Under the pieces are notes generated by a model that was given only the letters and a program-made list of their open reading frames with translations, was not told the origin of the DNA and did not search any database. Shown in pieces: positions 6,510 through 17,526 of a stretch of DNA of 64,000 nt. How positions within the stretch are numbered: the stretch's first letter is position 1; each line of letters begins with the position of its first letter. Both the position numbers and the translations under genes were made by a program. This stretch comes from Isurus oxyrinchus (Eukaryota), in the NCBI GenBank assembly GCA_026770705.1, contig JANJGN010001343.1, forward strand, positions 62,001 to 126,000. Direction: 5' to 3'.

Positions 6510-6724
6510 CCACAGGGTCAGGACACAAAGGGTTAACAGTTCACCAACATCTCAAAACATGAGCTGCTCTGTCACTTTAATCCAACTTCCTCATTTTGAC
6601 TCACAGAGACACATCCACCCTTTCTAATTAAACACACAGAGGGAGCAGCACAGGAAGAGGTCATTCAGCCCAAGCAGAGCGTGTGGGCAGTTCCTCCCCA
6701 GGCGAGCAGTCGGACAGGTCCTGG
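6510..6724 (+). promoter_or_regulatory. Putative promoter and non-coding first exon of gene A
   Basis: acttcctcatttt ETS/PU.1 motif at 6585-6597, exon X copy, donor GTAAGT at 6725. Confidence 0.55.
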
Positions 6725-7174
6725 GTAAGTAACGGAACGATTGGAATTCACTTCCACCACCAACACCATCCTTTGTTGATGTTGTGACTTTATAAAGACA
6801 GATTCCAATGATTGATGCCTTTGAAAGATTTCTACTGATTATTGAGATCTGGGTGTGAGGCTCAGGTCTGTTGTACAGAACATCTTTCTAGCTCAAAGGA
6901 TGAGGGAAGTGCAGGGACATGAGCTTTGGGACATCCTGAGGTGGTGAAAGGTGCTATAGAAATGCAAGTCCTTCATTGATTTATTTTTTTAAAGCTTTTT
7001 AACTCTCTGCAGAGCACCTATCATCCCACAGAGAACCAAATTAGTCTGTGAAGACATTGTCTAAAAGCAGTTCTGATCTCTTGAGAGCTGTCGGACAAGA
7101 GGTGAGGCCTCATTAACTCCTTTCTCTTTCACAGTTTAAGAGTCAGAAGCTAAAGGAATATCTGGGAGTGGACA

Positions 7175-7214
7175 ATGATCGGGAAATCTTACTTCCTCCT
7201 GTCACTTCTCCAAG
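7175..7214 (+). CDS. Leader exon of Siglec-like gene A (MIGKSYFLLSLLQ)
   Basis: Acceptor at 7133-7134, ATG at 7175, phase-1 donor at 7215. Joins V1 to give ...LLQ-VGLS-QEW. Confidence 0.78.
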
Positions 7215-13200: not shown

Positions 13201-16200
13201 ATCAGCCAATGTAGAATGATCTTGTCAACTCCTGTGTCCAGGATTCTCTTCTAACCATTGTGATACCTTGTGGAGTTCCTTGTGTGTCCTGTAGATGGTC
13301 CACACTGCAGCCGATGTGCCCCAGTGATGGAGGGGGTGGATATCGAGTCTAGTGGATCTACAAATTATCAAGATTTAAATATTGATATTTCTCTCCCCAG
13401 TTGGACTGTCACAAGAATGGGAAAGTAACACTCCACGAGAGGTGACAGCACAGAAAGGTTCATGTGTACAGATTCCATGTCATTACAATTACCCATCACA
13501 TTTGTTAGAGAAAACACGTGTCGGAATCTGGAATATGAGAAGGGACAAATGGAATACATTGTCTATAGCCTTTCACTCCAAGCATCACAGTCACGAGTTA
13601 TCACGGTTCCACCATCGGACCCGGCTGTCTGGAGACCTGAAAGATGGCGACTGTTCTCTGATTATAAACAACATCAGATGGGGAGATGCAGGATTTTTTT
13701 TTTTCAGAATAGAATTTGACAATGGTCGGAGCCACAACTATTACCCTGAAACCCTGCTTCACGTTTCTGGTAAGTGCTGTGTTATAATTACTCAACAATT
13801 CACATCCAACACTCAATGGGAGATAATAGTGTTTGATTTGCTTGTTTTTTGGCCGTGTTAACCAGCGTCACTATTTTTAATGATTTGTCTATTTCTGCTC
13901 CCAGATCCATGAGCTTATTGTGTGTGATTGAATCCACATCATAGCTGTAACGTAAACCGAGCTGAGGGGTGATGACACCTCCCCCCTGAGTGAAGTGTCT
14001 CCTCCCCACTACACCTTCCACCCCTCACACCGTCAGGTCTGACCTGGTGACAGTGCGGAGCTTATCACCAAATCACACCTTGGCTTGACCCCCACCCCCA
14101 CCTCCTCTGGCACTTTCTCCTCCTTTGAATATCTCACAGTGTTCCACCCCTCTCATCTCTCCTTCTAACTTCTCGTTCTCTATCGCCGATCACTCCAGGA
14201 ATGATAAACATCTTCGCCCCAGGATATCTTCACTGCTTTCCTCCCTCAGTCTCTGCACCGACTGAATTCCCATCCTCGGAGATCTCAATCTCCATCTCAT
14301 CTCATCCCGCTCGGTTATTCCAACTCACTCCTGGCTGGTCTCGCACATTCCACCCTCTGTAAACTTGGGGTCATCTAAAACTCAGCTGCCCCTGTCTTAA
14401 CCAGCAGTAACTCACGTTCCCCTATCCCCCCCTCGACTCTCTGACCTTGAATGGCTCCTGGACAAGCAATGTCTTGATTTCAAAATGCTTGTCCTTGCTT
14501 CCTCTCTATCTCTGTAATCTCCTCCTGTGCTACAGCCTTCCCAGATTTCTGCACTCCTCTACCTCTGGACTCTTCAGCATCCCTGATTTCCATCGCTCCA
14601 GCATGGACGGCCAAGCCTTCAGTAGCCTGGGTCCTGAGACTTAAATCCTTTCATCTTTCTATCTCCTCCTTTAAGGTGCTCCTTTAAACCCACCTCTTCA
14701 ACCAAAGTTCTGATTATCTGACCTAATATCTCCTTATATGGCGTGGGACCATACTTTCTATTATAATGCTCCTGTGGAGCACCTTGGCATGTTATATTAC
14801 AATATAGGCACTATATAAATATAATCTATTGTTCTATGCTCCTCTAGACCATTTAGATTCTTAATTTTGAGTTAACATGCAACCTGATAACCTGGTGATA
14901 GCTTCCAGTTCAGTCCAAAAGCAAACTCTAATAATCACGTTTAATATCAATGATTAAATGTATTGACTGTGTCCATCAATGTTATCAGCTTATCCACTCC
15001 CATCAATCTCTCTAATCCTGTCTCGAAGTCTGACATATCGACAGAAGAATGATTCACATTTCTGTAGCACCTTTCACCACCTCAGCACGGACCAAATCAC
15101 TTCACAGCCAATGAGCTGATTCCTGAATTGTAGTTACTGTTGTAATGTGGGAAACACAGCAACCAATTTGCGCACAGCAAGCTCCCACAAATTGACAAGT
15201 AACAAATGGCCCATATCGCTGAGTGAATGATGGGGTAGTGCACTCCAAACTCTGGTCTGCTCCTCCACCCTCACCCACTATTATCAGTTCAAGTTTCTCG
15301 GAGTGAACGTATATTAAGCTGAGAGAGAGAAACACCAAAGTCTCAAAGCAGGAAATTCTCTCCTGATCATTGTAACCTCTCAGATCTGATATCATCCTTG
15401 TAAAAGTGCTTTCTCTTGTGGGGCTGTGATTTCTATTTGAACTGATGCTTCACGTTATATTTCTCTAAAAGGATCCATTCCCTGTCTGTTAGATTTCACA
15501 GATAAACCCACGATATTCCCTGCTGAAATTATTGCAGGAAAGCGTGTGGATGTAAGCTGCACCTTCAACACAACGTGCAATGGAACAGCAGCACCTGTCT
15601 TAAACTGGGACATTCCCACTGACGTACCTGGATCAGTCTCAAACACTGTAACTCAGCATGGTGTCACTCTGACCTATACTTCTGTTCTGACCCTGATCCC
15701 ATCACTCAAACACCACGGACACAATCTCAGCTGCAGAGTGAGATATCCATCTGTTTCATCGGAGCGGACCCTCGTACTAACTGTGCAAGGTAAGTATGGA
15801 CACCCTTCATTCTACATCAGCACTCCCTCAGCGCTGACCCTCTGACAGTGCAGCCCGTTCTCAGTATCCATATTCTCAGGCCACTCAAATTTGCTTCACA
15901 GTCGATAGAAGTTAACTGATCTTTAATTGATTATTGCTGAATGAAGGGACAAGCTGTCTAAACTTTACAGCTTGCACACGTTATTTTCCATGGCAACACC
16001 TCCTCTCATCAGAGACCACTTGCCAACCAATCAGCACTCTCTTCCCTTTAAATATAAATTGTTGTTCATTTTCTGTTGGTAAACCTGCGAGCTGTCTTGT
16101 TGAGTCCTGCCCTGACATCTCAATATCACAATGAACAGAACAAGTTCCAACAATGAGCTGTGGTTGGTGATTCCTCACATTACATCCAGGGACACTGGAG

Positions 16201-17526
16201 ACTATCAATGTGTGGCAGAGAATGAACATGGAGCAGTGGAGGTGTCCATAACCATCACTGTGGAACGTGAGTGTACACAGACTTCAACATCACTCTCAGG
16301 TTCAAACACTACACAAATACAAACAAATATACAGACCTAAGCAGACACCTGCAGACACACAATCCCACATGTATGAGCACACACAAAGACACACTCACAA
16401 ACAAACACACTATCACAATCTGCCCTGTGGGTTACCTGACCTCCCTCAGTGCTGCACCGGAGTATTGACCTAGATTCTGGGTTTTGTGTTCCCTTTCATA
16501 TTTATGGAAGAATATGGAAATTGCAAAGTCTATTACAGACACTCAGATGCACAGAGATACTCACAGATACTCTCTGCCTCTCCAACTCTCTATCCTCCTT
16601 TAAGAAGTTTCCTGAAACCTAATCCTTTGACCAGTCACCTGTCCTAAAACCTCTTACGTGATTTTGTGTGAAATTTTGTTTGAGTATCTGAGAGTAAGTG
16701 AGAGGTGGAGAGGTTTAGGAAGGGAATTCCTGTTGGTGAAAAGCTTACATCATGTTCTCAGCTTTCCAGTGCCCATTTTTCACATGATGTCCAATGTCCT
16801 TGTTCATAATGGGGATTGCCTATGTAAACGTCACGCTGTAGTTACACTCTCCCACCAGTGGTGGCACGGTAACATTTATCCCTTGCATCTCCAAGCTTTT
16901 CAAGCAATTTCCCTTCCTAATTTGCTACTATTCACCTCAACCACTCCCAGTGGGAGCGAGTTCCACATTCTCCCCTCTCTCTGGGTAAAGATTGGAACTG
17001 TTTATTAAGCGGGGGGTGTAAGTCCGTGAGGGAGTCCATCTCGATCCTGCCCGATTCGCACACGCGTCCGAGATGGATTTCCACCCTGCACTAAACGTTT
17101 CCAGAATTTTCTACAGCACAATCCTGTACACAGCGATGGAGAGAAACATTGGACAGGGAGTCAAACAGCACAATGATCCATTCTCACCAATGTTCCACGC
17201 TAAGGGGAAAGTTCCGATTGTCCACTCTTAGAGTGTTTACAATGAAAACATTCATTCCACATTGAATCCCAGTGGATGGGTCAATATTACAGCAAATGTT
17301 GCAGTGATATGAAGCTTGATTGTTCAGCCAGAGTGAGAGATTGAAAGCGGAGAGTCAGTGATGATTTCTTTCTGTGTGTTCTCTAGATAGTGGAGGAGAG
17401 ATTCTGCACGTGATCCTGATCCTGGGAATACGAGCTGTGATATTCCTTGTGGCTGTGGTTATCACTATCGCTGGAGTCTGTGTCTGGGAGAGACAAACAG
17501 TGAAAGGAAGTCGACAGACTGTTTAA
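7175..17526 (+). CDS. Siglec-like gene A, activating-type (leader-V-C2-TM with Arg, short tail); join(7175..7214,13401..13769,15493..15789,17387..17526), about 281 aa
   Basis: All junctions are GT-AG and phase 1, giving an open 846-nt CDS if the broken third Ig exon is skipped. Siglec Cys pattern and F-strand Arg are present. Confidence 0.72.
8300..11490 (-). mobile_element. Degenerate Ty3/Gypsy LTR retrotransposon in the leader-V intron
   Basis: Minus-strand remnants: gag zinc knuckles (GRCG...KCPAFHQSCKACGRKGH), protease KIDTGASAN, integrase pieces (WPGMNNDLEVVVGKYEACQE; IHTVKSLILKCRQTKQDPHIAMLHLRSTP), and a PBS-like CA|TGGTGATCAG at about 11296. Many stops and frameshifts. Confidence 0.8.
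8745..9062 (+). mobile_element. tRNA-derived SINE nested in the Gypsy integrase
   Basis: A box TGGTGTAGTGG (8752-8762), B box GGTTCAAATCC (8816-8826), CR1-like tail (agggatgggtaataaatcctggcc). Confidence 0.72.
11493..13200. mobile_element. LTR-like interspersed repeat(s)
   Basis: Recurs at 24895-26560 and 62824-64000. Its 3' part is an inverted homologue of the insertion at 43007-43899. Confidence 0.5.
13401..13769 (+). CDS. Siglec V-set Ig exon V1 (essential Arg present)
   Basis: Acceptor ctctccccag and donor G|GTAAGT, 369 nt. Motifs GSCVQIPC (Siglec inter- and intradomain Cys), W, GDLKDGDCSL, DAGFFFFRIE (Arg codon 13706-13708). Confidence 0.92.
14030..14830 (+). mobile_element. L2-like LINE fragments
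   Basis: Pyrimidine-rich L2-type sequence ending in the ggcactatataaat tail; related to 27430-28400. Confidence 0.5.
15493..15789 (+). CDS. Siglec C2-set Ig exon (domain 2) of gene A
   Basis: ttag|ATTTC...CAAG|GTAAGT, 297 nt, phase 1-1. Encodes DFTDKPTIFPAEIIAGKRVDVSCTFNTTCNGT..W..SVLTLIPSLKHHGHNLSCRV, including the extra Cys that pairs with the V domain in Siglecs. Confidence 0.92.
16116..16266 (+). pseudogene. 5'-truncated third Ig (C2) exon of gene A
   Basis: HLNITMNRTSSNNELWLVIPHITSRDTGDYQCVAENEHGAVEVSITITVE with donor C|GTGAGT. In-frame TGA at 16113; first Cys, Trp and acceptor are missing, replaced by repeat-like sequence. Confidence 0.8.
17387..17526 (+). CDS. TM/terminal exon of gene A: DSGGEILHVILILGIRAVIFLVAVVITIAGVCVWERQTVKGSRQTV*
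   Basis: Acceptor tttctttctgtgtgttctctag, phase 1, hydrophobic helix with Arg (CGA 17431-17433), 12-aa Tyr-free tail, TAA at 17524-17526, AATAAA at 18507. Confidence 0.82.

Follow-up and report, generated by a model that had tools for sequence, protein, structure and literature searches.

An arginine within the transmembrane (TM) segment is a textbook mark of an activating receptor. Among the closest described systems, the activating members of the primate pairs Siglec-5/14 and Siglec-11/16 combine a Siglec V and C2 ectodomain with a basic TM residue and a short tail, have a near-identical 5' part in common with their ITIM-bearing partners, and are often lost, with null alleles known (PMC13358205 and PMC6288428, in part). 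The shark locus described here resembles them in ectodomain, TM residue and tail, and likewise in the 5' part common to an inhibitory partner and in the frequent loss of the activating member. CD89, KIR2DL4, NKp46 and the macaque activating KIRs also resemble it, in the placement of an Arg within the outer half of their TM segment, and the macaque activating KIRs arose by recombination of an Arg-bearing TM exon onto another ectodomain (PMC13107469 and PMC8102735, in part). The chicken CHIR genes, too, form a massive cluster built by block duplication, in which activating and inhibitory loci stand with pseudogenes (PMC1458963, in part). Unlike the primate pairs, the shark system is probably of independent origin, has an activating TM exon unrelated to its inhibitory TM exons, and likely uses FcR-gamma/zeta rather than DAP12 as its adaptor. 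It differs from the FcR-gamma-coupled Arg receptors in its ectodomain family and in a longer hydrophobic run above the Arg; and whereas KIR shuffling took place within one family, the shark exon has apparently moved across families and scaffolds.

The window is a stretch of 64,000 nucleotides from Isurus oxyrinchus (contig JANJGN010001343.1, positions 62,001 to 126,000, forward strand). It contains a phase 1 exon of 140 nt that reads SLDSGGEILHVILILGIRAVIFLVAVVITIAGVCVWERQTVKGSRQTV in frame 3, preceded by a pyrimidine-rich acceptor with its AG at 17385-17386 and closed by a TAA stop at 17524-17526 (Table 1). A preliminary description had proposed an Arg-bearing TM exon at this position, overlooked by the ORF track, forming a single terminal TM-plus-tail exon and unrelated to the two neutral TM exons of the window. 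Each of these points holds: acceptor, open frame and stop are in place, the exon is absent from the window's stop-to-stop ORFs (208 with 80 aa or more), and it ends the gene model given below. The exon is unrelated to the neutral TM exons, since the two sets of homologues match separate sites in the window, those of the Arg-bearing exon only 17386 and those of the neutral exons only 34361 and 53185.

Table 1. Features of the window, in window positions, with the evidence on which each rests
Feature	Positions	Strand	Evidence
5' block common to inhibitory-type neighbour, 96.9% identity	6578..13826	+	Alignment to window 57900 onward, C1343:119900-127150
Leader exon, ATG at 7175, MIGKSYFLLSLLQ; acceptor before 7135, GT donor after 7214	7135..7214	+	Homologues
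Siglec-type V-set exon; F-strand Arg retained; frame crosses an 11-T run	13401..13769	+	Homologues, PDB matches
C2-set exon with three Cys (Siglec pattern)	15493..15789	+	Homologues, gene model
3' half of a further C2 exon, within the last intron	16116..16267	+	Homologues; skipped by the observed joint
TM segment and 12-residue tail, last coding exon	17387..17526	+	Sequence, splice contigs, gene model
Intramembrane Arg codon CGA	17431..17433	+	Sequence, genome pattern matches, alignment
Neutral TM exon (type A) belonging to the next gene; tail exons with tyrosine motifs come after it	34362..34460	+	Homologues
Neutral TM exon (type B); three Tyr-motif tail exons come after it	53186..53283	+	Homologues
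Leader of inhibitory-type partner gene L-V-V-C2-C2-C2-C2-TMA-tail, which extends past the window	58495..58534	+	Homologues, V tree, shared block

Within the exon, seven hydrophobic residues precede the Arg and 18 follow it, and the tail beyond them has no Tyr. The Kyte-Doolittle mean over 21 residues is 2.95, a value exceeded in the window only by three reads of (TG)n repeats. A basic residue within the TM segment and a short tail lacking a tyrosine motif are thus both present, the exact depth of the residue in the bilayer being uncertain: on a rough insertion scale the top-scoring window begins at the Arg, and 19-residue windows from the Arg or just before it score equal to the longer windows that bury it. 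Those equal scores, and the tail without Tyr, would suit a receptor whose Arg sits at the outer membrane interface, with the 18 residues below it spanning the bilayer, and which acts as a tailless, non-signalling decoy or adhesion receptor. Such a receptor is improbable here, since the ILGI above the Arg does not vary between three orders or between three types of ectodomain, a constancy for which a passive anchor would give no reason, and activating and inhibitory pairs have V domains in common.

The four-exon model leader-V-C2-TM has an open 846-nt frame of 281 aa with canonical splice sites. Its V domain finds its top PDB matches in sialoadhesin, MAG and Siglec-5 (E 2e-9 to 6e-9), the best matches being split among the three. 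All 98 longer homologues come from sharks and rays, the closest from Carcharodon and Cetorhinus, and their labels are mostly Siglec, MAG, CD22 or CD33-like. The F-strand Arg lies in FFFRIEF, which aligns to the FRFE motif of sialoadhesin; among 100 open V exons from activating-type genes, 87 retain this essential residue and 8 could not be called. The Cys residues of the model stand at 35, 40 and 98 in the V domain (none on the F strand) and at 159, 165 and 217 in the C2 domain, an arrangement that we take to be the Siglec bonding pattern. Judged by V-set homology, the F-strand Arg and the Cys pattern, the gene is Siglec-like.

The preliminary description had proposed that junction reads from 15789 to 17387 be sought, and this joint (GT..AG) occurs in contigs from all four runs examined, while the upstream joint 13769>15493 occurs in contigs from three of the four. 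These runs are four of 22 found, cover three samples, three studies and two organism labels, and were guessed to be RNA; since their contigs were placed at 90% likeness and are not assignable to this copy, they demonstrate splicing at the level of the family and for no particular copy. Runs whose word shares were small were left out of the evidence. A processed-pseudogene origin of the joint is ruled out, as all of 104 surveyed copies retain intron sequence before the exon. The further C2 exon in the last intron is partial in 87 of the same 104 copies, full and open in 13, and missing from four. Upstream of the gene, window 6640-6724 repeats the first cytoplasmic exon of the type-B genes, acceptor and donor included; others lie at about 4500, 20935 and 57958, and nearly all leaders, including most of those in C52:1-620000, have such a copy some 450 nt before them. 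It may serve as a non-coding first exon, the leader exon itself having an acceptor.

The gene has a close inhibitory-type neighbour. The 5' block common to the two extends over 7.27 kb and takes in the leader and V exon, and the window V domain has as its sister (support 100/99, identity 93%) the first V domain of the inhibitory-type gene with its leader at 58495; the tail exons of that gene carry YANI/YAQI-type motifs. In a tree of 37 V domains the activating and inhibitory classes are mixed, with 10 changes of class against a mean of 12.5 after shuffling; about 50 of 500 shuffles gave a count as low, and well-supported branches force at least four changes. The activating gene thus has an inhibitory counterpart with a near-identical ligand-binding domain, and there is good support for reading the exon as the activating arm of a paired, Siglec-like system in sharks. 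Adaptor-coupled activation, as first suggested from the exon alone, agrees with the anatomy (a conserved Arg, a Tyr-free tail, a Siglec-type ectodomain and an ITIM-type neighbour), from which we infer the binding of an adaptor.

Within window 35433-42717 the type-A gene has three tandem terminal tail exons, two of which read YANP and not the ITIM-like YTNI/YANI, which suggests alternative tails that may differ in strength. The gene at 26791-34460 consists of V-V-TM, with no C2 exon found and an N stretch lying between, and its first V has Met in place of the essential Arg. The type-B TM exon at 53186-53290 comes without its own leader or V exon and has the donor GTCAGT, compared with GTAAGT in its paralogues; it is probably a truncated copy. 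A 24-nt minisatellite in the type-B tail intron, at 1078-2190 and 55070-55490, contains long open frames.

The exon belongs to a very large set. A 30-nt core that leaves the Arg codon unspecified has 216 matches in the genome, and its reversed control none; 211 of the matches read CGN (Arg) and five CAA, with no stop and none without a first-position C (CAA against TGA 5:0, p=0.06, the copies being non-independent). The five copies in which Gln replaces the TM Arg (L096, L132 and three more) include two that were examined and have open V and C2 exons; such copies could possibly be adaptor-free decoys. When one mismatch is tolerated, the TM matches number 229 for the Arg type, 219 for type A and 108 for type B, 556 genome-wide, and at two mismatches V exons give 809; uncollapsed haplotypes may inflate these totals, perhaps up to twofold. 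This inflation is suspected because the FCER1G TM exon occurs twice, nearly identical, on the small contigs C1723 and C1648 (L032, L033), a pair that is either a haplotype duplicate or a recent duplication. A single contig of 4.17 Mb, C52, has at least 66 Arg-type, 56 type-A and 32 type-B TM exons, and 620 kb of it hold 14 Arg-type and 15 neutral ones. The shark genome thus has hundreds of copies, compared with 15 human Siglecs (PMC8615218, in part), and at least 154 TM exons on one contig, compared with 103 CHIR loci, although the CHIR cluster is LILR-like and the shark cluster Siglec-like (PMC1458963, in part). The number of tandem V exons in the activating-type genes on C52 and C71 ranges from one to four or more; in eight of these genes the leader is joined to C2 with no V.

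Many of these copies are damaged. Integrity was surveyed in 104 copies, made up of the first 100 core matches listed, three on C1343 and one on C121. The Arg is retained in 102 of them, and acceptor and TM segment are intact in 101. A copy was called intact when the TM segment was intact, at least one V was open and C2 was open or absent; 46 of the 104 genes are so (the leader being in view for 17 of the 46) and 58 fail. Among 29 gene units in continuous sequence, V is open in 10 of 16 activating-type and in all 13 inhibitory-type units (Fisher p=0.02; 11 of 16 under the scoring of the 104-copy survey, the copies being non-independent). The within-genome pN/pS is 0.96 for C2 and 1.66 (0.4-24) for the TM exon, where the differences are too few; it comes from copies chosen by TM pattern and does not demonstrate purifying selection; within-genome copies of the variable V region give no sign of positive selection (0.93, 0.66-1.52). 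Diversity in the 3' flank is probably inflated by misalignment and was left out of the evidence.

These figures bear on the partly separate question of whether this particular member of a real family is silent or dying, a duplicate that segmental duplication has carried along. That is possible but doubtful. The proportion of copies that fail the survey and a C2 pN/pS near 1 would agree with it, as would the V exon's T-run, which has 6 T in 79 of 100 open V exons and 11 T, as here, in two; moreover, the sister copy on C121, 98.5% identical, has its V frameshifted at the same run. On the other side, all four exons of this copy are open with canonical splice sites, and a C71 paralogue that differs by 8 nt has the same 11-T form, so that the run is unlikely to be a single assembly error. 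C1343 was also considered as a simple haplotig of C121, and the two are collinear over 19.4 kb only.

The genome has TM exons of both FCER1G and CD247, each with its Asp. Counted from the cytoplasmic boundary, the Arg stands 18 residues up and the FCER1G/CD247 Asp 15, which fits gamma/zeta; numbered from the extracellular end of its hydrophobic stretch, the Arg has position 8, and gamma/zeta fits less well. In described receptors, Arg in the outer half of the TM segment is the signature of zeta/gamma partners and a central Lys that of DAP12 partners, whose Lys stands at position 9, near the position of this Arg (PMC13107469 and PMC8102735, in part). The type of residue and its depth lean towards FcR-gamma/CD3-zeta over DAP12. 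Coupling of the same activating receptor to DAP12 (or DAP10), after the manner of mammalian activating Siglecs, seems unlikely. Siglec-14 couples to DAP12 through an Arg. Siglec-14, -15 and -16 use DAP12, as do mammalian activating Siglecs generally (PMC13233462, in part), and the Arg here is the eighth residue of its hydrophobic run; against this, nearly all DAP12-type partners (in the portions of the literature covered) carry a central Lys, and the Arg, 18 residues from the cytoplasmic boundary, lies in the outer third of the TM segment. A search of the genome for the DAP10 family gave one weak match (E 0.41) with an internal stop, which is not credible. It seems somewhat probable, on the sequence evidence, that the exon, one of more than 200 of its kind interspersed among inhibitory-type genes, encodes the activating half of a paired shark Siglec-like receptor, and that its Arg would pair with the Asp of an FcR-gamma/CD3-zeta-type ITAM dimer.

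The exon is more strongly conserved than the V domain, with 80-96% identity to its homologues where the V domain has 56-75%, and ILGIRA stands unchanged in all 12 of the sequences aligned, which represent three shark orders. This TM segment ends seven of the 98 V homologues. Searches with the exon gave 9 and 10 matches, from Carcharodon, Scyliorhinus, Mustelus, Chiloscyllium, Hemiscyllium and Rhincodon (one, P0110, was a repeat artefact and was dropped); the same searches yielded nothing from rays or from squalomorph sharks, a result that speaks only weakly for absence.

Some of these matches end other receptors. In carpet sharks the exon also terminates CD22-like gene models, which could be mis-joined; in the present genome the CD22-like gene on C2274 has no Arg-TM exon within 16 kb downstream, and a pairing with CD22 is unconfirmed there. 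In two carcharhiniform sharks the exon terminates a SLAM-labelled protein: P0111 is named SLAM family member 9-like by NCBI, and the PDB matches of P0109 are CEACAMs, CD276, NCAM2 and CD2, with no Siglec. On scaffold C21 of the shark genome a homologous SLAM-like gene is followed by a homologous exon, identical at 153 of 223 nt including about 85 nt of intron (E 4e-18). A stop interrupts the V exon of this Arg-exon gene, which is probably dead; about 35 kb upstream, a CD2/SLAM-like neighbour combines a neutral TM with a V exon that is similar and open. The pair lies in G000:C21:89402001-89468000 (L215-L220). No Arg exon occurs within 8 kb of three more distant SLAM-like loci. The three SLAM-type exons group together (99/98) on an unrooted tree of 43 columns, so the split predates the two orders. 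Homology at the DNA level on a CD2/SLAM-like gene of another scaffold points to exon shuffling. Whether, in galeomorph sharks, one portable activating exon was copied among Siglec-like, CD2/SLAM-like and CD22-like receptors, giving each an FcR-gamma-coupled 'on' form and underlying the paired cluster of several hundred genes seen here, is finely balanced. A further 13 matches to a more distant SLAM-like C2 domain lie on small contigs (C62, C87, C133 and C219 among them, with C225, C790, C795, C962 and others); they are a second expanded receptor family.

In function, the receptor would need an ITAM dimer to reach the cell surface, and a ligand at the V domain, probably sialic acid bound through the retained Arg, would trigger ITAM/Syk signalling. 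It may thereby act against pathogens that turn the inhibitory twin to their own use. The V domains of the two would be kept matched by duplication and gene conversion, with activating copies arising and dying fast.

In the literature searched, which lay mostly outside subscription journals, no description of shark paired Siglecs was found. PMC8455134 and PMC13262535, in the parts available, treat Siglecs only in passing, and PMC4536121 makes no mention of sharks; relatives of the gene are already annotated by NCBI, some as Siglec-14-like. The principle is known, and what is new is the scale, the likely adaptor and the exon common to families. Paired activating and inhibitory Siglecs have been described from mammals, and the shark system would show that the design recurred at the base of the jawed vertebrates, probably with another adaptor and on a far larger scale. 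If the reading of a portable exon is true, the cluster is far larger than any described Siglec family, and an exon that different receptor families have in common would offer a concrete route by which activating receptors come into being again and again.
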